A stretch of 64,000 nt of DNA from Candidatus Woesearchaeota archaeon (GTDB taxonomy: Archaea; Nanobdellota; Nanobdellia; Woesearchaeales; SKGA01): the NCBI GenBank assembly GCA_046543005.1, contig JBKHAG010000002.1:551-64550 (forward strand). Direction: 5' to 3'. The number at the start of each line of letters is the position of its first letter. The stretch's first letter is position 1. A program made the position numbers and the translations under genes. Positions 5,653-37,147 of the stretch are shown here, in pieces. Below the pieces are notes generated by a model. That model was not told where the DNA came from. It did not search any database and was given only the letters and a program-made list of their open reading frames with translations.

Positions 5653-7197
5653 TTATTTTTGAGCACTTTTTTTCTTAGTTAATTTATGACCTATTACTTC
5701 AGAAAATAACAATAAACTGCCATACATAAGTACACTCGCACCTACGATTAAAAATAATTGTAAGTGAATGATGTAAGATATTAAAAACCACAATCCTGCA
5801 CTTGCTATGAGCGGTAGCCATAGTTTTTTAAGAAAATTAAACCTTAACATGTTCTTTTGAATATAAAAGTACATTATTACAAACATAAGCGCGTACGTTA
5901 TTGTTGTTGCAATTGCTGCTCCGTAGAGTGAATATTTTGGTATTAAGAGGATGTTAAACAAGATGTTTATTCCAGCGCCTATTCCTGCAATGATTGCGAA
6001 TTGTTTTTGTTTATCACACGCAGCCATGAATTGAGAAAGTAGTGTTGTTAAAAACACAAAGACTTGTGCAATAATAAGTATTTGAAATACTAAAGCGGTT
6101 TCAGGTGATTGAAAATCGTAGACAAATTCTATAATTCTTGATGATAAAAGCATTACACCAACTACTATTGGCAATAATAAAACCATAGAATAATATAATA
6201 ATTTTTCAAGAAGTTTTTGTAAATTCTTTTTACTTGTTTTATACAGTTTTGAAAATAAAGGAAAACCAAACGTGAGCAAGACCATAGGTATAACATTTAA
6301 TATGTTAATGAGTTTATACGCTGCGTTATACCATCCAGTCACTACGTCTCCTTGCATGAAGGAAAGAAATAAAGTGTCAATTCGCACATACACCGATGCA
6401 AAAGCGACTATTAAAATAAAAGGGTATCCTTGTTTGAATAAGTCTTTAAGAAACGGCCATTGTAAGCTAAACGCGTAGGTGAAGTGTTTTTTTGCAACCA
6501 GCCACAAGATAAGTGTTTTAATAACTTGTGAAGCAAATAAAACTATAACAAATAAAAATAATGAACGAAACAACCATAAAACTACAATACCAACAAGTAA
6601 AGCCACTAGGCGTTCAATAATGCTTGACCACGCTATTGTTTTTGCCTTGTGTTGCACGCGAAGAATATTTTTAAAAAATCTGCCGTAAGATGACGCAAGT
6701 GTTAACAATCCAACAACAAACAACGCAGAAATTAAATCATTTTTCCCAATAAAAAATATTGTGATTGCATACACTACAAAGGAAATAAGAAGTAATAAAG
6801 TTTTAAATGTTAAAATATTGGATACATATTTATCAACATCTTTAAAGTCTCGCGAAAGATCTCGCACCATAAGTGGCGACATTCCCCAGTCTGAAAAAAT
6901 AAAGAAGAATCCTACGAAGGCAAATAAGAAACTGTATTGTCCTAAGCCTTCTGCACCAAGTGTTCGCGAAAGCACTAAAATAATAATATAAGAAAGAATA
7001 TTTTCAACTGCTGTTGCTATTGCAACCATCCCAGTATTTTTCATATAAGAAAATCCCAGTCCTTGAGTTGGAATACCTAGTTTTGTAAGGATTGTCTTTA
7101 CAAGATTCATGAAGTCGTTAAACCTAACAGTATTTAAAAAAGCTTTGATAAATAGCGCGTTCTTCGCAAATTCTTCGAAAAATTCTCCTAAACACAT
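5653..7197 (-). CDS. Polysaccharide/oligosaccharide flippase (Wzx-like, MOP superfamily)
   Basis: 514 aa with more than 10 hydrophobic helices. Size and topology are typical of polysaccharide-biosynthesis flippases, and it sits in a glycosyltransferase locus. Confidence 0.75.
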   Translation of the reverse strand: MCLGEFFEEFAKNALFIKAFLNTVRFNDFMNLVKTILTKLGIPTQGLGFSYMKNTGMVAIATAVENILSYIIILVLSRTLGAEGLGQYSFLFAFVGFFFIFSDWGMSPLMVRDLSRDFKDVDKYVSNILTFKTLLLLISFVVYAITIFFIGKNDLISALFVVGLLTLASSYGRFFKNILRVQHKAKTIAWSSIIERLVALLVGIVVLWLFRSLFLFVIVLFASQVIKTLILWLVAKKHFTYAFSLQWPFLKDLFKQGYPFILIVAFASVYVRIDTLFLSFMQGDVVTGWYNAAYKLINILNVIPMVLLTFGFPLFSKLYKTSKKNLQKLLEKLLYYSMVLLLPIVVGVMLLSSRIIEFVYDFQSPETALVFQILIIAQVFVFLTTLLSQFMAACDKQKQFAIIAGIGAGINILFNILLIPKYSLYGAAIATTITYALMFVIMYFYIQKNMLRFNFLKKLWLPLIASAGLWFLISYIIHLQLFLIVGASVLMYGSLLLFSEVIGHKLTKKKSAQK

Positions 7198-10892: not shown

Positions 10893-10966
10893 CTGAGTTG
10901 TTCATTTCATATCACAACCGTAGTCAAAAACACTTGGTTCTTCGTTGGTTGCTTATTTCATATCAC
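10893..10966. repeat. Direct repeat of a 17-bp unit (atttcatatcacaaccg), copies 54 bp apart; the second copy is the 3' end of nrdJ
   Basis: Seen in sequence. Both copies read GCDMK-stop on the minus strand. Confidence 0.7.
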
Positions 10967-13295
10967 AACCGCCTTTAAACCCACAACCTGCAGAACACTC
11001 TGTACAACCGCCAAGTTTGACCATTTTCCCTTTTTTGCATACCGGACAAGTATTACCAATTTCGGAACCACACACAACATCTTGTGTATGTGTTGTTGTA
11101 TCTGCTGGTTTTTTGAGTACTTCTTGAGAAGACTCTTCTTTAATATCGTTTTTAGAATCTTCAACACTAGAGGGAACTGCTTGACCAGATCCTTTATCTT
11201 CAAGATTTTTTTCACCTGTGTTTTTATCAGTTGATAAAATTTGTTCATCTCTGGAGCCATCTCTATAAATAGTCATTCCTTTACAACCTAAGTCATAAGC
11301 AAGTTCATAGAGTTGCATAGTGTCATCAACAGTAAAGTTTGCAGGAACATTTGCAGTTTTTGAAATTGAAGAATCTGTCCATTTTTGAATTGCTGCTTGT
11401 ACTTGTACATGTTGTTGAGGACCTAAATCCATTGCACCAACAAAAAAGTCTTGCAAAGAACCATCTTCTTTTTTTACATAATCTTTTACGATATCAATAT
11501 CCACTTCGTGAAAGCCTAATCTACTTTGTTGAAAATATTTAAACGCGAAAAATGGCTCGATGCCAGTAGATGTTCCAAGCATAGAACCAACAGTTCCTGT
11601 GGGTGCTTGAGTTGTTAAAGATACATTTCGCATTCCTTTTTCTTTTATTTTTTCTTGCACGTGTTGAGGAAGTCGTTGCACGAATTGACTTTTTAAAAAT
11701 TTCTCGCCATCATAATAAGGAAAAGATCCTTTTTCTTCTGCTAAATCAGCAGACATAGAATACGCCTCGCTCGTTATTGTTTTATAGAGTTTATCCATGA
11801 ATTCTAAACTTTCTTGGCTTCCAAAAGGAATACGCATTCGAAGAAGAACTTCTGCAAGTCCTAAAGTTCCACAACCTACTCGTCGTTCACTTTTTTGATT
11901 TTTTTCATTTTCCTCAAAAATATAAGGTGTTAAATCAATAACATCGTCTAAAAATCGTACAAGAAGTTGAGCAGATTGTTTGAGTTCTTCCCAATCAAAA
12001 TCATAAATAGGACCTATATTATCTTCTCCCGTTTTATAGAGAAAATTATTAAGAGCAAGATGACCTAAGTTACAAACGCCCCAAGGCGGAAGTCCTTGTT
12101 CCCCGCAAGGATTGGTGCAAACAATGTCATTATAATAATAGGAATTGCTTTGATCATTGTAGCGTCCAGAAAAAATTATTCCAGGCTCTGCGCTTTTCCA
12201 TGCACTACCAATAAGTTCATGCCATAATTTTCGTGCTTTAATAGTTTTATAAACTTTAGTTTTTCTACCATTTTTTTTCCATCGCCAAAGATTTCCATCC
12301 CAATACTCATCATATAATTTTTTAGTTTCAGGATCTTCAATATCAGGATATTCTAAAGACCAATCACTACCTGTTTTTACTGCTTCCATAAATTGATTAG
12401 AAACAAAAACAGAGATGTTTGCATTATCTAAAAAACCTATTTTGTGTTTGGAAGCGATAAATTCTTCTATATCAGGATGCCAGTCTGCAAGAGCAAGCAT
12501 AAGAGCTCCTCTTCGAGAACCACCTTGTTCGATTAGACCTGTTGCGTTTGAATATAAATTTCCCCAAGACACTGCTCCTGAAGATTTTCCATTAACGCCT
12601 TTTACCCGGGCATATCGTGGTCGTAGCGAACTTAGATTTATTCCTACGCCGCCGCCTCGACTCATAATTTCAACAAGTTCAAATAAAGTATCTTGAACAA
12701 TTGAACGCCGAGAATCTTTTGGTGAAGGGATAACAAAACAATTATATAAGGTTAAGTTTGATGTATAATTTCCTTTTTCGTCAACATTTGCTCCAGCCAT
12801 AATTCTTCCTGCTGGTTGAATGTAGCCTTTAAGAAGAGCTTGAGTAAATTTTTGTGCGTATTCATCTTTTTTTATACCTTCAACACTTGCTACTGCTCGA
12901 GCTACTCGACAATAAGCATCATAAATACTTTCTTCAGGTTTATCACATTTTAAAATATCAATTGCTTGCGTGTCATCTTTAAACGCGCCTGTTATAAAAT
13001 ATACTTGAACAATATTTCCTTGTTGTTTTGTAATAATTCCTAAATCTTTTTTTGGATATTTTGGGTGATCTTTTGAAATGGCAACGACTACATCTCCGAT
13101 GCCAATTTTATTTGCAATTGTTTTTTTTGCATAACGATCTAAAAAAATGATCAAACCCATTTCTTTAAGATGAGTAGAATTGTTAAGAATGTTTTTTGCT
13201 TGTTGACTTAAAGGTATTTTTTTTTGTTGTAATTCTTCAACGATTTTAACATCAAGAGTATTTTTTTGAAGAATTTTAGTTTTCATTTCTTGCAT
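10953..13295 (-). CDS. nrdJ: Class II (adenosylcobalamin-dependent) ribonucleotide reductase
   Basis: SRGGGVGINLSSLRPRYARV, active-site NPCGEQ...CNLG, TIYRDGSRDEQIL, and a C-terminal zinc-ribbon/redox tail CPVCKK...CTECSAGCGFKGGCDMK. Confidence 0.9.
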   Translation of the reverse strand: MQEMKTKILQKNTLDVKIVEELQQKKIPLSQQAKNILNNSTHLKEMGLIIFLDRYAKKTIANKIGIGDVVVAISKDHPKYPKKDLGIITKQQGNIVQVYFITGAFKDDTQAIDILKCDKPEESIYDAYCRVARAVASVEGIKKDEYAQKFTQALLKGYIQPAGRIMAGANVDEKGNYTSNLTLYNCFVIPSPKDSRRSIVQDTLFELVEIMSRGGGVGINLSSLRPRYARVKGVNGKSSGAVSWGNLYSNATGLIEQGGSRRGALMLALADWHPDIEEFIASKHKIGFLDNANISVFVSNQFMEAVKTGSDWSLEYPDIEDPETKKLYDEYWDGNLWRWKKNGRKTKVYKTIKARKLWHELIGSAWKSAEPGIIFSGRYNDQSNSYYYNDIVCTNPCGEQGLPPWGVCNLGHLALNNFLYKTGEDNIGPIYDFDWEELKQSAQLLVRFLDDVIDLTPYIFEENEKNQKSERRVGCGTLGLAEVLLRMRIPFGSQESLEFMDKLYKTITSEAYSMSADLAEEKGSFPYYDGEKFLKSQFVQRLPQHVQEKIKEKGMRNVSLTTQAPTGTVGSMLGTSTGIEPFFAFKYFQQSRLGFHEVDIDIVKDYVKKEDGSLQDFFVGAMDLGPQQHVQVQAAIQKWTDSSISKTANVPANFTVDDTMQLYELAYDLGCKGMTIYRDGSRDEQILSTDKNTGEKNLEDKGSGQAVPSSVEDSKNDIKEESSQEVLKKPADTTTHTQDVVCGSEIGNTCPVCKKGKMVKLGGCTECSAGCGFKGGCDMK

Positions 13296-13490: not shown

Positions 13491-15383
13491 TTATAATTCA
13501 TCTAAAAGTAATTCTCCTACAACATCATCAACAACTTCTTGAACGGACTCTTCAACTGCGTCATCTTCAAAAGCCCATAGTTTGGTTTGTTTTTTAGTCA
13601 TTAACGCTTGAGAATCTCTACAACCGTCTCTATATACAGTAATACCTTTACATCCTAATTTGTGAGCCATTTTCATAATTTTTGCGATGTCGTCTTGAGA
13701 ATAAGAATGAGGTAAATTAATAGTTTTGGAAATAGAATTATCAATATATTGTTGAAAGACAGCCATGACTTTAAGGTGCTCTACAGGAGAAACATCCATT
13801 GCTGTACGATACACTGATTTAAAATCATCATCTAACCAAGAAATATTTTGAACAGTATCAACAAACTGAAGTTGAATTTTAGCAGTTCTATCAATAGGCA
13901 AGCCATCAACTGCTTGTTTAAAATAAGGATTAACAATCGAATATTCTTTACCTTGTGAAGTTGTTGTGGTATAGGAAAATGCATACACGGGTTCAATGGA
14001 CTGAGAGGATTGGGCAAGTAAGCTTGTTGAACCTGTTGGTGCAATAGAAGTCATTGTTGCGTGACGCATAGGTCTATCCCACGTACAACGTTCAAACTCA
14101 GGAAAACTACCTCGTTGCTTAGCAAGATCGTGTGAAGCGCTATGTGCTTCCTCTTTAATAATAGACATCCACTCTTTGATAATCTGAAGCGACTGTTTGC
14201 TGCCATAAGATACCCCTAAAGCAAACAATACATCTGCAAACCCCATTACACCAAGACCTATCTTTCGAACTTTAAGAGAAGCAGATTTTATTTTGTCATG
14301 AGCATATACGTGCATGTCTAAAGAATTATCTAAAAAACGTACAGCAACACGAACGGCATATCGTAAAGCGTCAGCATCCAATACGAGACCATTTGTTTTT
14401 TTTGCAGACTCATCTTTTTTTAAAAATTTTGAGAGTACAAGGTGGGTGTAAGGGACACCTTCAAAAGATTCCAACTCGTATTGTCCACACGATCCAGTGC
14501 ATAAAACTTTTTTATCTTTAAAGGGATATGTTTTATTCATCAAATCAATAAAAACAATACCTGGATCGCCTGTCTTCCAAGCTTGTTCAACGATTTCATC
14601 AAATAAAGCTCGAGCTTTAATAGTTTTTACAACTTCATTGTTTCTAGGATTACGAAGCGAAAAATCACCGTCTGATTCTACTGCTTTCATAAAGTCATCA
14701 GATACTGCAACCGATAAATTAAAATTTTGTAATTTAGAAATATCTTGTTTTACACGAATAAATTCTAAAATATCAGGGTGAGAAATGTTTAAAATAGCCA
14801 TGTTAGCCCCTGCTCGTCGTCCACCTTGCAAGATTGCACTAAATGAAGTATCAAAAATATGCATCACACTAACAGGACCAAAAGCAACATTTTTCATACC
14901 TTTAACATCATCTTTTCGAGGACGAATTTTAGAAAAATTAAAACCTAAACCACCACCTTTTTGTTGAACAGAAGCAGCGATTTTTAAAATTTCAAAAATA
15001 GTATCTAAACTATCAGGAACATCAAGAGCGTGATCAGAAAATAAAGATTGAAACGTATTACCAGCATTCATTAAAATGGGAGAAGCAGGCATAAAATATC
15101 CACTCGCTAAATGATGAAAAAATGTAAGTGTCCATTTGTCAACATCAGAAGAATAGTTTTTTTCTGCTTGTGCGATATTTTTTGCAACCCTGTAAAATAA
15201 TTCTAAAGGCGATTCAATAATATTTCCTTGATCGTCTCGTTTTAAATATCTTTGTTTGAAAAAATCTTTAACGACAGGACTCATATCTAATTGTTTTTCA
15301 TATGAAGAGATATCACTTTTTGAAAGCAATGACATAGGCGCGGTAGAATCCTTCTCTGACATAAAAAATACAAAGTACTTCAA
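13491..15383 (-). CDS. Class II ribonucleotide reductase paralog, divergent and lacking the C-terminal Cys-rich tail
   Basis: QKGGGLGFNFSKIRPRKDDV and TVYRDGCRDSQAL are conserved. The NPCGE position reads GSCGQYE. The protein ends in an acidic tail with no CxxC pair. Confidence 0.75.
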   Translation of the reverse strand: MKYFVFFMSEKDSTAPMSLLSKSDISSYEKQLDMSPVVKDFFKQRYLKRDDQGNIIESPLELFYRVAKNIAQAEKNYSSDVDKWTLTFFHHLASGYFMPASPILMNAGNTFQSLFSDHALDVPDSLDTIFEILKIAASVQQKGGGLGFNFSKIRPRKDDVKGMKNVAFGPVSVMHIFDTSFSAILQGGRRAGANMAILNISHPDILEFIRVKQDISKLQNFNLSVAVSDDFMKAVESDGDFSLRNPRNNEVVKTIKARALFDEIVEQAWKTGDPGIVFIDLMNKTYPFKDKKVLCTGSCGQYELESFEGVPYTHLVLSKFLKKDESAKKTNGLVLDADALRYAVRVAVRFLDNSLDMHVYAHDKIKSASLKVRKIGLGVMGFADVLFALGVSYGSKQSLQIIKEWMSIIKEEAHSASHDLAKQRGSFPEFERCTWDRPMRHATMTSIAPTGSTSLLAQSSQSIEPVYAFSYTTTTSQGKEYSIVNPYFKQAVDGLPIDRTAKIQLQFVDTVQNISWLDDDFKSVYRTAMDVSPVEHLKVMAVFQQYIDNSISKTINLPHSYSQDDIAKIMKMAHKLGCKGITVYRDGCRDSQALMTKKQTKLWAFEDDAVEESVQEVVDDVVGELLLDEL

Positions 15384-19898: not shown

Positions 19899-21212
19899 TC
19901 ATTCAAAAGATGTTTGTACGCCTAAAACTAGTTTTTGACATTTTGTGCACGAAAGCCCTAATTTTGATATTCGTTTACAAAAAGCCTCTTCCATAAGGGG
20001 TTCTGCATGGGCAGGAATAACAACTTCTGGTTTAATAAGGTCAACAAAATCATCAAGATCTTTACCGGCGCCATGACCAGAAGAATGAATAGAAGTAAAA
20101 AGAGAAACATTGTTTTCTTCAAGTCGTTGTTCTAATTGTGCTCGTTGGCGTTGAATTTTTACAGAAGGAATAACAGAACAAGAAAAAATAACTGCGTCTT
20201 GAGATGAAAATAAAAATTGACCTCTACTCATCCTATCTAAAACCGCGCCAGGTTCTCCTTGATGTCCTGTTACCACGATAACATAGTTTTGAGGATGGTC
20301 TTCGTTTGCTAAAAATTTTTTTACTTGACGAGCATAAGTAAAACATTTACCACGAACAGTTAAATCAACAATACCCACATCTTTTGCTGCGCGAATATAA
20401 CGAGTTAATGAACGACCCAAAAAAACAACTTTTCGATTAAGCATGTCTGCAAAATCACAAATAGATTGCAGGCGAGATAGTTGTGAAGAAAAGGTAGAAA
20501 TTACAATGGCTCGTTTAGAAGAGACATCATTTTTTAGATCAAATAATAATTGTCTTGCGTCTTGTTCACTAGTTGCGTATTTATCTTCTTGAGCGTATAA
20601 GGAATCTAATAATAATATTTTTGTTTTTCCTTGCAAGGACTTAATAGCAACAAGATCTGTTGGTTTTTCAAAAGGATGACGTTGATCGTTTTTAAAATCG
20701 TTACCGTATACGACAACGCCGTAAGGTGTATGAAAAGCAATAAGCGCGCTTTGAGGAATTGAATGTGCAACATGGATAAATTCAACGCTTACTTTTGGAG
20801 AAAGTCGTATTTTTTTACCTGTTTTAACAGCTTTTACTTCAGGATTTACTGCGTGGTCTTTACTAAACGATTGTATAAGTTTAGCAGTAAAAGGTGTTGC
20901 GTATACAGGGCGTTTTATCTTATTATACAAAAAAGGAATAGCACCGATATGATCTAAATGTCCGTGAGAACAAAAAATTCCTCGTATAAAAAGTTGTTTT
21001 CGTTGTAAAGGTTTAATATCAGGAATGGCGCCAGCGTTGACTAATTTTCTATACACATGTTTTTTATTAAAAAAATCATTTCCTGTAAGTTCAATATAGT
21101 GTTCTAAATGAACACCCATATCACAAATAAATGCTTCTTCATCTACTATGATTGCAACACAATTTTTACCCACCTCACCAAAACCACCAAGTGGAAGAAT
21201 ACTTAATCCCAT
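19899..21212 (-). CDS. Archaeal beta-CASP ribonuclease (RNase J-like, metallo-beta-lactamase fold)
   Basis: ILPLGGFGEVGKNC at the N-terminus and the HGHLDHIGAIPFL metallo-beta-lactamase motif. About 440 aa. Confidence 0.75.
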   Translation of the reverse strand: MGLSILPLGGFGEVGKNCVAIIVDEEAFICDMGVHLEHYIELTGNDFFNKKHVYRKLVNAGAIPDIKPLQRKQLFIRGIFCSHGHLDHIGAIPFLYNKIKRPVYATPFTAKLIQSFSKDHAVNPEVKAVKTGKKIRLSPKVSVEFIHVAHSIPQSALIAFHTPYGVVVYGNDFKNDQRHPFEKPTDLVAIKSLQGKTKILLLDSLYAQEDKYATSEQDARQLLFDLKNDVSSKRAIVISTFSSQLSRLQSICDFADMLNRKVVFLGRSLTRYIRAAKDVGIVDLTVRGKCFTYARQVKKFLANEDHPQNYVIVVTGHQGEPGAVLDRMSRGQFLFSSQDAVIFSCSVIPSVKIQRQRAQLEQRLEENNVSLFTSIHSSGHGAGKDLDDFVDLIKPEVVIPAHAEPLMEEAFCKRISKLGLSCTKCQKLVLGVQTSFE

Positions 21213-21292
21213 ATGAACACCAAAACTATTTTTTTCAACGAGTTTTCAAAGAACAACACTAATTTCAAGTAGCTATACGCGATTTGAAAAAG

Positions 21293-21550
21293 TGGTGCGG
21301 GGAAAGGGACACACAATACAGGAGACAGTTATCTGTATTCAAAATACAGGTAATGTTTACTCTCGCTGCGTTTTTGAACCCTTGTAGGCACTAAGCCAAC
21401 AGATGACTCACATGATTCTTCATCGCAACGCATCCTCTGATGCGATATGCTCAGCACTCAAATGCCTTGAGTCTGTCCCGTTTGGCCACTCCGGCGCCAA
21501 CGAAAACGGATGTTGGAAAACTTCATTTGACGACTCCGGCATCCCCGCAA
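21293..21550. ncRNA. Candidate structured non-coding RNA, about 250 nt, GC-rich, family unassigned
   Basis: GC-rich island in AT-rich DNA. The ends pair (gcgggga ... tccccgc), nested by gggaca ... tgtccc, with several internal perfect hairpins (cgcatc-ctct-gatgcg, aatacag...ctgtatt, ccaac...gttgg). Confidence 0.35.
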
Positions 21551-21604
21551 ACTCACAAAACAAAGGAACCAATAAAGACTTTATAAAACTACTGGAGATA
21601 GTGG

Positions 21605-21791
21605 CCTTGTTCAAAAAGGAGTTTTTATGTGTACTGTCAATTACAACACAAACAGTAATCTGGCTATGTGCTTAGCTGTTTAGCGCCTGCTCGTTATTTG
21701 TTCCAAGCTGATATAATAATAATTATAATAATAATAATGATAATAACGCGCAGTATACAAATGTACAATATTTTAAACAAGGCCAAAGATA
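21605..21791 (+). repeat. MITE-like repeat, copy B, with an internal (ATA)n microsatellite
   Basis: Near-identical to the reverse complement of 15406..15567. The ATA-rich tract at 21711..21746 is longer than in copy A. Confidence 0.7.
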
Positions 21792-21888
21792 GCATGTACC
21801 CTAAAAAAAGCAATAAAAATAATAATTTAAAAAAGTGTAGGGCAAAATGCAAGAAAAGTACACCTAAGCACATAGCCCTTAATAAGCG

Positions 21889-22302
21889 TTAAGAAAGTTG
21901 AGAAAGTTTTTTTTCGATTGTTGCAAGTGATTCTTTTAGTGCCTCTTCAGGAGATGAAGAATGGGTTTTATTTTTTGAAGAAGATTGAGATTGTTTTTTA
22001 GAAGTAGGCGTTTTTGTTGACGCTTTTTTTGTTATTTTTGAAGAAGCGTTTTGTTTTTGTTGACGCTTTTTTTCTTGAGCAACGAGTTCTTGATGAGGAA
22101 GTATATCAAAAAGATCTTGATACGATTTTTTTAAATCAGTCATTTGTGTAGAAACTTGTTCAATTAAAGCAGATTTTTCTTTTCGAATTTCAAGTAATGA
22201 ATAATATTGTTGCGAAGAAAGTAAAGACCGTTTTGCAATTGTAAGTAGTGCCGACTGTAGGGGTTGATTGTCTTTTACTTGTACAAAATAATCATTTACC
22301 AT
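21889..22302 (-). CDS. Coiled-coil protein with a K/S/T-rich tail (hypothetical); third gene of a three-gene operon
   Basis: Starts YFVQVKDN then heptad-rich helix. No known motif. Confidence 0.4.
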   Translation of the reverse strand: MVNDYFVQVKDNQPLQSALLTIAKRSLLSSQQYYSLLEIRKEKSALIEQVSTQMTDLKKSYQDLFDILPHQELVAQEKKRQQKQNASSKITKKASTKTPTSKKQSQSSSKNKTHSSSPEEALKESLATIEKKLSQLS

Positions 22303-30678: not shown

Positions 30679-31383
30679 ATGAACTCAACAGAGCATATTA
30701 CAAAGATTACTACAGGAAGTGAAGCTATTGACTGGCTTTTAGAAGGCGGTCTTGAAAGAGAAGTCATTACAACCATATATGGTCCTGCAGGGAGTGGAAA
30801 AACAAATATTTGTTTATTAAGCGCTGCTCATTGCAAAAACAAAAAAGTCATTTATATTGATACAGAAGGTAGTTTTAGTGTTTCTCGCCTTAGACAAATC
30901 AGTGACGATTATAAAGCAGTACTAGACAATACTATTATTTTAAAACCAACAACTTTTGCCGAACAAAAAAAAGCATTTGAAGAATTACGCAGTATAGACC
31001 ATTCAAAAACAGGAATAATTATTGTAGATAGTATTGCGATGCTATATCGTCTTGAAATGGGACAAACTAAAAAAATTTATGAAGTAAATAAACAACTAGG
31101 TATGCAACTTGCGTTCCTTACTGAAATTGCCAGAAAAAATAAAATACCTGTTCTTATTAGTAATCAAGTCTACGCTGACTTTGAAAATAAAGATAAAGTC
31201 AATATTGTTGGCGGAGATTTATTAAAATATCAAAGTAAATGTCTCATAGAACTTAAAAAAATAAGTGATGGCGCACGCAAAGCAATTATTCGAAAACATC
31301 GCTCCATAGAAGAAAACAAAGAAATTGATTTTAGAATTACCGACTTAGGAATTCAAGAAATAAAAAAAGAAAATAAAGAATAA
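30679..31383 (+). CDS. radB: DNA repair and recombination protein RadB
   Basis: ITTGSEAIDWLLEGG...TIYGPAGSGKTNICL (Walker A), 234 aa, RecA core only. Confidence 0.85.
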   Translation: MNSTEHITKITTGSEAIDWLLEGGLEREVITTIYGPAGSGKTNICLLSAAHCKNKKVIYIDTEGSFSVSRLRQISDDYKAVLDNTIILKPTTFAEQKKAFEELRSIDHSKTGIIIVDSIAMLYRLEMGQTKKIYEVNKQLGMQLAFLTEIARKNKIPVLISNQVYADFENKDKVNIVGGDLLKYQSKCLIELKKISDGARKAIIRKHRSIEENKEIDFRITDLGIQEIKKENKE

Positions 31384-35582: not shown

Positions 35583-36533
35583 TTAAGCGTCTCGAACACC
35601 TTCATCAACTACTATAAAAACACATTCAGAATCAGGCAAGTTAGGACTATCTACGAGTTTGGCAACACGAGTGCCTTTTTTACCTTTTCTTAAATAGATA
35701 CGAAAAGTACTATTATGGCCAACGATGTGTCCCCCAATTGCTTCAGTAGGATCACCAAAAAATGCGTCAGGTTTTGCCATGACTTGATTTGTTACATATA
35801 CGCAAATATTATTAATATCTGCAAGTTTTGAAAGAACCCTCATGTGTTTGTTTATTTTTTGTTGACGCTCTGCAAGAGTTCCTCGACCAATAAATTCTGC
35901 TCGAAAATGCGCTGTAAGTGAGTCAACAACAACAACTCGAACACGTTCCCCTGCTTTTACAATATCACTAACTTTTTCTGCCAATAACATTTGGTGATCC
36001 GAATTATATGCTTTTGCAACTTTAATCCTGTTTAATGTTTCTTGAGGATCAAGACCAAAACCTGTTGCTATTTGCATAATGCGTTCTGGGCGAAAGGTAT
36101 TTTCTGTATCTATAAATACAGCTGATGCTTCAGAGTCGTCTATTTGGCACGCCACGCAAAGAATATGTGCAATTTGCGTTTTAGAACTTCCATATTGACC
36201 ATAACATTCAGTAATTGCTCCTGTTTCAAAACCGCCACCAAGCATGTCATCAAATTGACTAGCACCAATTTTTATTTTTTGAACTCGAGAACGTTTTTCT
36301 AGGACGTCACTTCCAGACTGAAAACCCATATCCAGATTCGTTCGTGCTGATTGAATCATTTTTCGAGCAGCAGTTTCTGTAACGCCTGAAGCATCTGAAA
36401 GTTCTGCAGGTGTAGCTACAGCTATTGCCATAAGATTATCAAATCCCGAAGCCATTAATTTTTCTGCGGTCGCGCTTCCCACGCCAGGTAAATCATCAAT
36501 TCCAATTTCTTTATCTTTAGTCATATAAAACAC
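35583..36533 (-). CDS. radA: DNA repair and recombination protein RadA
   Basis: N-terminal HhH DLPGVGSATAEKLMASGF, Walker A GAITECYGQYGSSKTQ, and a RecA/Rad51 core. Confidence 0.9.
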   Translation of the reverse strand: MFYMTKDKEIGIDDLPGVGSATAEKLMASGFDNLMAIAVATPAELSDASGVTETAARKMIQSARTNLDMGFQSGSDVLEKRSRVQKIKIGASQFDDMLGGGFETGAITECYGQYGSSKTQIAHILCVACQIDDSEASAVFIDTENTFRPERIMQIATGFGLDPQETLNRIKVAKAYNSDHQMLLAEKVSDIVKAGERVRVVVVDSLTAHFRAEFIGRGTLAERQQKINKHMRVLSKLADINNICVYVTNQVMAKPDAFFGDPTEAIGGHIVGHNSTFRIYLRKGKKGTRVAKLVDSPNLPDSECVFIVVDEGVRDA

Positions 36534-36535
36534 CT

Positions 36536-36865
36536 CTAGTCTTCTTGTATGATACTGTCTTTTTCTTCTTTGAATGCAATGTATTCATAGGCTTTTTCTA
36601 ATGCTAAAATTGCTTTTGGAAGATCATTTACTCGTAAAGAATGAGAACTTTTCCAAGATCCGTCTTTATCTTTGTAATTTCTTTCCAAAGAAATTGTTCG
36701 AAACAGGCGAGGTGTTCCGTCTGAACTTGTTGTTTCATTCGCCCATACTGTCGCGTTGACAGGGCTTGCTCGAAAACTTTTTTCGGGCTTATTTTTTCCC
36801 ATATTTACTTCATTTTTTTCCATTGTGGTATCTCCTTGGTTATCCCATTTTATTTCACTTAACAA
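36536..36865 (-). CDS. Putative PC4/YdbC-like single-stranded nucleic-acid binding protein
   Basis: VNATVWANETT...LFRTISLERNYKDKDGSWKSSHSLRVNDLPKAI resembles the PC4-fold pattern. Stop is 3 nt from the radA start. Confidence 0.35.
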   Translation of the reverse strand: MLSEIKWDNQGDTTMEKNEVNMGKNKPEKSFRASPVNATVWANETTSSDGTPRLFRTISLERNYKDKDGSWKSSHSLRVNDLPKAILALEKAYEYIAFKEEKDSIIQED

Positions 36866-37147
36866 ATTCGTTTTGCCTATGAAGACAAATATTCATCATT
36901 TATCAAGGGAGTTAAAACCAATAAAATATACATATAGAATGTTCTTTATATAGGTTACGAGAGGCTGACCAGTGTGTCAACAGCATACAGGCATACGGTA
37001 AACAATATAGGGCAACATCAATTACGATCAAAATACAATAAACAATAAAAAACGCATAATAAAAAAATAGAAATAAGAAAAAGAAAATCCAACCGCTTTT
37101 TTGATTGTGTGCCTATGTAAGAGCAACAAAAAAGTTATTCTTGGCAA

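Follow-up and report, generated by a model that had tools for sequence, protein, structure and literature searches.

Up to three introns, at canonical as well as non-canonical sites, have been described in single tRNA genes of archaea, mostly from Thermoproteales and Thaumarchaeota (PMC8450103), and within the DPANN archaea an intron at position 59/60 is documented in the tRNA-Cys of ARMAN-2 (PMC5829648). DPANN genomes are reported to show raised levels of tRNA gene disruption together with incomplete predicted tRNA sets, and disrupted genes that have gone undetected are expected in them (PMC5829648). In this work a stretch of 64,000 nucleotides from a Candidatus Woesearchaeota archaeon (contig JBKHAG010000002.1, positions 551 to 64,550; hereafter the window) was analysed, and a GC-rich island at 21548..21293 on its minus strand proved very probably to be a three-intron tRNA-Leu(CAA) gene belonging to a DPANN archaeon of the Nanoarchaeia.

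The closest described systems are the multi-intron tRNA genes of Pyrobaculum, the Thaumarchaeota and ARMAN or other DPANN, which share with this locus up to three short introns at 37/38 and at D- and T-loop sites, extra introns bounded by relaxed bulge-helix-bulge (BHB) motifs of the HBh' or hBH type, and a tendency to be missed by standard gene finders (PMC8450103, PMC5829648). Because such genes are well described, the island is a further case of a known kind of gene and no new RNA class. It differs from the multi-intron genes of a thermophilic crenarchaeon in that it is carried by a metagenome-assembled genome (MAG) of a mesophile-like, AT-rich member of the Nanoarchaeia (Woesearchaeota-type), and in that introns come and go here between lineages with 74-78% protein identity. 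What lies beyond the routine is this variable intron content among close relatives, the presence of unrelated 59/60 introns in two lineages, and a conserved module in the second intron. Split and permuted tRNA genes (Nanoarchaeum equitans, Caldivirga, Thermofilum) are likewise disrupted archaeal genes that rely on BHB processing and broad-specificity endonucleases; here, in contrast, the four exons are collinear and ordered within one transcript, and neither trans-splicing nor permutation is needed. For the second intron the relevant precedents are the intron-borne box C/D guides of archaeal tRNA-Trp and N. equitans tRNA-Met, and the trans-acting C/D sRNAs of Pyrococcus which target the wobble base of tRNA-Leu(CAA) (PMC7994747, PMC3491384).

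Exons, introns and splice motifs of the tRNA-Leu(CAA) gene

The island sits in a 676-bp spacer that has an archaeal RNase J-like gene (19899-21212, minus) on one side and a small open reading frame (ORF; 21889-22302, minus) on the other. It had been picked out at 21293-21550 by an earlier reading of the letters alone (the sequence-only reading), and both its composition (G+C of 0.42-0.55 over 21300-21550, against a window mean of 0.32) and its ends, which fall within 2 nt of those of the gene, agree with that description. The same reading took the island for a structured non-coding RNA (ncRNA) rather than for overlapping ORFs, which was right in kind. It also read the opposite strand, could not match the island to a tRNA and suggested that the RNA might be highly reduced or specific to the lineage; the gene is instead on the minus strand, and its spliced exons make a standard class II tRNA-Leu(CAA). 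Read in that direction the island opens with GCGGGGAUGCCGGAG and closes with UCCCCGC-A-CCA, which gives a 7-bp acceptor stem, a discriminator base and a CCA encoded in the gene at 21295-21293; the terminal complementarity gcgggga/tccccgc of the sequence-only reading is this acceptor stem. The gene and its flanking signals are laid out as follows.

21580..21587, minus: TATA-box-like element TTTATAAA, 32-39 nt upstream of tRNA nt 1, read directly
21534..21548, minus: exon 1, GCGGGGAUGCCGGAG, 15 nt, tRNA nt 1-15 (acceptor 5' strand, U8, G9, D-stem 5' strand, start of the D-loop)
21489..21533, minus: intron 1, 45 nt, D-loop 15/16
21466..21488, minus: exon 2, UGGCCAAACGGGACAGACUCAAG, 23 nt, nt 16-37, anticodon CAA at 21469-21467
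21405..21465, minus: intron 2, 61 nt, canonical 37/38
21373..21404, minus: exon 3, AUCUGUUGGCUUAGUGCCUACAAGGGUUCAAA, 32 nt, nt 38-59 (anticodon-stem 3' strand, long variable arm, T-stem 5' strand, most of the T-loop)
21310..21372, minus: intron 3, 63 nt, T-loop 59/60
21293..21309, minus: exon 4, UCCCUUUCCCCGCACCA, 17 nt, nt 60-76 (end of the T-loop, T-stem 3' strand, acceptor 3' strand, A73, CCA)
21287..21291, minus: oligo-T run TTTTT, starting 2 nt past the CCA, read directly

Removal of the three introns turns the 256-nt gene into an 87-mer that ARAGORN identifies as tRNA-Leu(caa), every stem being perfect (acceptor stem 7 bp, D-stem 3 bp, anticodon stem 5 bp, T-stem 5 bp), and its drawing of the molecule includes A73 and a long variable arm with the stem GGC/GCC. 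A long variable arm and A73 are leucine identity features in archaea. The D-arm reads GCCGGAGUGGCCAAACGG, the anticodon arm ACAGA-CUCAAGA-UCUGU, with U33 in its 7-nt loop, and the T-arm AAGGG-UUCAAAU-CCCUU, the loop of which fits the pattern UUCRANY. That the host is an archaeon is seen from the PCNA, archaeal RNase J, RadA, aRF1 and L34e encoded near the tRNA gene. A transfer-messenger RNA (tmRNA), a candidate prompted by the acceptor stem and CCA, was dropped, as the host is archaeal and the exons form a complete tRNA.

The exon-intron structure and its BHB-like geometry can be read from the DNA itself. Intron 2 is bounded by a perfect hBHBh' motif, with an outer helix of 6 bp, a central helix CUCA/UGAG, an inner helix CAU/AUG and the bulges AG↓G and UC↓A (arrows mark the junctions). 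Intron 1 has a relaxed motif of the HBh' type, in which a palindromic central helix CCGG/CCGG (4/4 pairs) is flanked by the bulges AG↓U and AG↓U and by a 6-bp inner helix CGUCAA/UUGGCG, and this motif is reproduced by the local minimum free energy (MFE) structure. The motif of intron 3 is also relaxed: its outer helix is the 5-bp T-stem, its bulges are AA↓A and UG↓U, and its inner helix ACGCAG/CUGUAU has 5/6 pairs, with an internal hairpin CUGUAUU/AAUACAG beyond it. It should be noted that a strict free scan of the 256 nt yields many chance motifs, so that a BHB alone is no evidence, and that BHBs were therefore counted only at junctions dictated by the tRNA sequence. The junctions of introns 1 and 3 were set by the BHB register. 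Intron 1 is flanked at both ends by the 8-nt direct repeat GCCGGAGU, which is explained by the BHB geometry of this intron and need not be a target-site duplication.

By analogy with the known archaeal pathway, a 256-nt precursor would be transcribed from the TATA box about 35 nt upstream and would end at the oligo-T after the CCA; the archaeal tRNA splicing endonuclease would then cut every 3-nt bulge between its second and third nucleotides, and an RNA ligase would unite the four exons into the 87-nt class II tRNA.

None of the standard detectors reports this gene. ARAGORN with default settings finds no tRNA or tmRNA anywhere in the 64 kb, and Rfam gives no match in the whole window at the gathering threshold. 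The covariance-model scan that the sequence-only reading had looked to returned nothing meaningful either, since at E<=10 the region 21100-21900 produced chance-level matches only and the unspliced gene had no match to RF00005; these blanks do agree with that reading's failure to match the island to RNase P RNA or signal recognition particle RNA. A phage similarity search gave no match. The silence of Rfam is accounted for by the introns themselves. The spliced exons are identical in 78/84 positions to an intronless gene (L157 425-508) which scores 59.7 bits with the Rfam tRNA model, a one-intron gene (L007) still scores 44.3 bits, and two- and three-intron tRNA-Leu(CAA) genes go unmatched. 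With lax intron settings ARAGORN made three calls in the window: those at 6637-6756 and 36628-36891 are spurious, both being within long ORFs, and the third is the tRNA-Leu locus mis-parsed as tRNA-Thr.

Syntenic relatives and rival explanations

The comparative test used as relatives those contigs that encode an RNase J 78% (L003) or 74% (L005/L006) identical to that of the window; going by RNase J identity, L003 is the sister of the window and L005 falls outside the pair. The exact RNase J of the window also occurs in SRR11308339, L003 in SRR28369933 and L006 in JGI 3300005910. A search of GTDB genomes based on the RNase J protein confirmed no relative. The gene order RNase J-PCNA-ThiI-GH3 is kept in L003 and in L005/L006, and the same tRNA gene stands directly upstream, with a different set of introns in each. 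L003 carries introns 1 and 2, and its T arm is uninterrupted (AAGGGTTCGAACCCCTT); in L005/L006 the D arm is unbroken (GCCGGAGCGGCCAAACGG), intron 2 is present, and site 59/60 holds an intron of 146 nt. When the three loci are aligned, L005 lacks exactly 45 columns at the predicted intron 1, and relatives without intron 1 or intron 3 show precisely the joined sequence predicted from the junctions. The spliced products of the window, L003 and L005 are all 87 nt long and are all called tRNA-Leu(CAA), with nt 16 and the T-loop as the only places of difference: exon 1 is the same in all three, exon 3 shows no difference up to the T-loop, and apart from these positions the exons are invariant while introns and spacers have diverged. 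Intron 1 of L003 has substitutions that preserve pairing, and the homologues of intron 2 measure 62 nt in L003 and 59 nt in L005. In a more distant relative (L007, RNase J 51% identical) the tRNA-Leu(CAA) gene is located elsewhere and has the anticodon intron alone.

The flanking signals follow the gene. TTTATAAA is found at the same distance upstream in L003 and L005 while the surrounding spacer diverges, the leader GUGAGUU is kept in the window, L003 and L005, and the T-run is likewise positioned in L005. We infer that TTTATAAA acts as the promoter; the TTTTT run is likely an archaeal transcription stop, its terminator function being deduced from its position.

The introns at 59/60 are an observation in their own right. 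Those of L005 (L005:201-346) and of the window (21310-21372) are unrelated sequences of 146 and 63 nt, and L003 has none; the central helix of the L005 intron, UUCA/UGAA, is perfect. This suggests repeated insertion at the site, or very fast turnover.

Several points weigh against a functional three-intron gene. The motif of intron 1 lacks an outer helix, and the central helix of intron 3, UUCA/UGUG, has only 3/4 pairs with one U.U mismatch and is not formed in the MFE structure; for these two reasons introns 1 and 3 would need a broad-specificity endonuclease, and a Pfam scan of about 40 window ORFs found no splicing endonuclease (EndA). Sequence alone leaves more than one place for the junctions of intron 1 (the 8-nt repeat) and of intron 3 (a 1-nt choice). 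Moreover, a second and intact tRNA-Leu(CAA) gene may exist elsewhere in the genome, of which 64 kb were seen. The imperfect motifs of introns 1 and 3 and the limitation to 64 kb also speak for the most probable rival, namely that the locus is a decaying tRNA-Leu pseudogene with insertions of unspliced junk or mobile debris, the cell using another tRNA-Leu(CAA) or wobble by tRNA-Leu(UAA); a repeat resembling a miniature inverted-repeat transposable element (MITE), 58 nt upstream, shows that insertions do happen in this spacer. We nevertheless consider decay improbable. The exon nucleotides all maintain a perfect cloverleaf and are conserved across lineages with 74-78% protein identity while the introns diverge, BHB geometry is found wherever there is an insertion, the putative promoter is conserved, and the introns have no further copy within the window. 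In addition, splicing in DPANN is known to act on relaxed HBh'/hBH motifs and at the 59/60 site (PMC5829648).

That the island is one large structured ncRNA specific to the lineage, about 250 nt long and on either strand, with the terminal helix closing it and the hairpins serving as domains, is less probable still and is already contradicted by the relatives. This idea would draw on the contrast between the GC-rich island and its AT-rich spacer, on the absence of a match to any Rfam family, and on the folding energy of the plus strand (z = -4.1, against -2.1 for the minus strand); as the plus strand folds better and the gene is on the minus strand, folding energy would here point to the wrong strand. 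Relatives, however, cleanly drop blocks of 45 nt or 63 nt, and a complete tRNA always remains. The alignment with syntenic regions that the sequence-only reading had proposed as a check shows compensatory changes in a hairpin of intron 2; the conserved positions are the tRNA exons, and introns 1 and 3 are dispensable or are swapped for unrelated sequence. The hairpins listed in that reading are all four present; they are structures of introns, or a pairing of anticodon and intron, and not domains of one large RNA.

21429-21444: cgcatc-ctct-gatgcg, hairpin of the kink-turn (K-turn) module in intron 2
21457-21471: ctcaa-atgcc-ttgag, anticodon loop paired with the antisense stretch of intron 2
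21497-21516: ccaac-N10-gttgg, inside intron 1
21315-21349: aatacag/ctgtatt, three arms, inside intron 3

The second terminal complementarity, gggaca (21307-21312) with tgtccc (21474-21479), is present in the sequence but lies outside the functional fold; it would join the T-stem 3' strand and the end of intron 3 with the junction of D-stem and anticodon stem, and is treated as fortuitous. Lastly, that the reading frames of 90 and 64 codons standing open here (21403-21675, plus; 21420-21614, minus) are small protein genes is scarcely credible, given that neither has a Pfam match, that they overlap each other and the tRNA gene, and that the plus-strand ORF runs on into the MITE-like repeat, which L003 does not have.

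The module of the anticodon intron

Within the three-intron tRNA-Leu(CAA) gene it is intron 2 that is shared by all three lineages. It reads GCA-UUUGAGUG-CUGA-(GCA..CGCAUC AGAG GAUGCG..UGC)-GAU-GA-AGAAUCAUG-UGAG-UC and contains two features.

21455..21462, minus: antisense stretch UUUGAGUG, pairing with A31-G37 of the anticodon stem-loop, read directly
21420..21454, minus: K-turn-type module, with CUGA at 21454-21451, a hairpin at 21450-21425, and a GAU bulge and GA at 21424-21420

The topology of the module is that of a box D'/C', and the arrangement is the sequence signature of a K-turn. Directly 5' of its NNGA box stands UUUGAGU, complementary to A31-G37, so placed that C34 pairs with the antisense nucleotide five upstream of the D'-like box; this register is the rule by which box C/D guides pick the ribose to be methylated. 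The helix between antisense stretch and anticodon is predicted by RNAalifold, and the hairpin covaries, from CGCAUC/GAUGCG in the window to CACAUC/GAUGUG in L003 and L005. A weak same-strand match to the C/D-box small nucleolar RNA family SNORD10 (window 21368-21431, 19.2 bits, E=0.098, far below the gathering threshold) rests on GCGAUGA and CAUCUG at intron 2 and exon 3. The match is in keeping with C/D-like motifs there and is not evidence by itself.

The distribution of the module was addressed by pattern scans of metagenomes and genomes, the results of which are a sample consisting of the matches listed. A search of JGI metagenomes with a pattern made of the exons only gave at least 120 loci; as automatic spliced alignment misplaced the T-arm introns, a structure-based parser was used. 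Among the matches listed, 63 tRNA-Leu(CAA) genes were intronless, 40 had the anticodon intron alone and 6 had a T-arm intron in addition, and none had an intron in the D-loop. A genome-wide scan with the pattern CTCAAG..TTGAGTGNTGA returned mostly chance bacterial matches together with about a dozen true DPANN tRNA-Leu genes, again among the matches listed. The module was then compared over 40 introns of at least 40 nt, namely 36 unique ones among the matches listed plus those of the window, L003, L005 and L007. The best arrangement of NNGA, hairpin, 3-nt bulge and GA had a perfect stem of 6-9 bp in 25/40 of them, and 1.6% of shuffled sequences reached a 6-bp stem. The hairpin sequence varies across introns with its pairing preserved, and the best register sets C34 opposite the fifth nucleotide upstream of the box in 24 of the 25 introns (among the matches listed) with a module stem of 5 bp or more.

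These features recall the introns of pre-tRNA-Trp (Haloferax, Pyrococcus sR50) and of N. equitans tRNA-Met, in which a 37/38 intron also carries K-turn-forming GA motifs, the antisense element also has position 34 facing the fifth nucleotide before a D'-type box, and guide pairing also excludes the BHB fold (PMC7994747, PMC3491384). Unlike those guides, the intron described here belongs to tRNA-Leu(CAA), has one predicted D'/C' K-turn closed by a hairpin of 3-9 bp, a 7-nt antisense stretch, and neither a terminal box C/D pair nor a second guide. That intron 2 guides formation of 2'-O-methylated C34 (Cm34) is possible and we put it forward tentatively. In the more general form of this idea, which we hold with equal reserve, the anticodon intron of tRNA-Leu(CAA) in many DPANN archaea would be a minimal guide with a single K-turn, a 'half' box C/D ribonucleoprotein (RNP) which is built around a D'/C'-type K-turn and would methylate the wobble C34 of its own tRNA before splicing. 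Intron 2, either before splicing or as excised RNA, would bind L7Ae by way of the K-turn, and the 7-nt antisense stretch would direct 2'-O-methylation of the wobble C34. Antisense pairing and the BHB central helix both occupy C32-A35, so that the guide fold cannot coexist with the BHB fold and the two would have to follow in succession. As an alternative, the K-turn would only recruit L7Ae, and would in this way lend shape or stability to the precursor or to the excised intron.

Against a guide function stand the short antisense element, of about 6-7 pairs where 10-12 nt are usual, and the single K-turn. Intron 2 has no terminal box C (RUGAUGA) upstream of the antisense stretch and no box D (CUGA) at its 3' end. 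The module was not seen in intron-containing tRNAs for Arg, Gly and Ile of the fetched loci, and was seen in Leu(CAA) introns only.

Stand-alone antisense and box elements did not occur in 752 kb of fetched loci, and the Pfam scan of about 40 window ORFs found no fibrillarin, Nop5 or L7Ae.

Other loci, neighbouring elements and significance

Two further loci carry multiply disrupted tRNA-Leu(CAA) genes. L064:6799-7172 (CAZVWU010000001.1, an 'uncultured archaeon' MAG in GTDB), on the minus strand as fetched, holds a 373-nt tRNA-Leu(CAA) gene with apparently four insertions: the D-loop holds one of 39 nt, site 37/38 one of 47 nt, the variable arm one of 119 nt and the T-loop one of 83 nt. Once these are taken out, ARAGORN recognises the joined 85-mer as tRNA-Leu(caa). 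With four putative introns the gene would go beyond the 'up to three' of the literature. At L060:4215-4431 (CAZYEG010000019.1, minus as fetched) a three-intron gene gives a spliced 84-mer that is also called tRNA-Leu(caa); its introns lie at about 31/32 between anticodon stem and loop, at 37/38 with the same K-turn module, and in the T-loop. The Methanosarcinales label of the L060 MAG looks doubtful for that contig.

Next to the island the sequence-only reading had placed a MITE-like repeat, and the repeat is real. It spans about 180 bp in two inverted copies, 21607-21701 and 21728-21783 matching 15565-15471 and 15461-15406 with 99% and 95% identity; one copy is the one upstream of the tRNA gene, and the other adjoins a ribonucleotide reductase (RNR) ORF. 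The spacer of L003 lacks the repeat and is for that reason 307 bp long where that of the window has 676 bp. The adjacent minus-strand ORFs 10953-13295 and 13491-15383 both match the RNR large-subunit barrel domain (E about 1e-117 and 1e-112) and may represent a tandem duplication or two RNR classes. There are also two ORFs of the Rad51/RadA family, a RadB-like one of 234 aa (30679-31383) and a full RadA of 316 aa (35583-36533), with aRF1, an FmrO-like methyltransferase and a TrmB-family regulator between them, an ordinary archaeal housekeeping context.

In practical terms, the gene would escape any pipeline that depends on ARAGORN or on the Rfam tRNA model, and a gene missed in this manner may cause the false claim that a DPANN genome lacks tRNA-Leu(CAA). 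The locus is a concrete and comparatively validated example of the undetected disrupted tRNA genes that have been suspected in DPANN, and the lineages of the window, L003 and L005 form a small system in which gain and loss of archaeal tRNA introns can be followed. Taken jointly with the minimal guide, and as a conjecture of the same modest standing, the tRNA-Leu(CAA) family of the Nanoarchaeia may undergo unusually fast gain and loss of introns, one of its genes having three insertions and that of L064 apparently four. Should the anticodon intron be a working guide, RNA-guided methylation of the wobble base would be built into the tRNA-Leu(CAA) gene itself across a large uncultured group of archaea. 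It would then set out a minimal form of guide, and would represent a third class, simpler in structure, of intron-borne tRNA modification guide, after those of tRNA-Trp and tRNA-Met.

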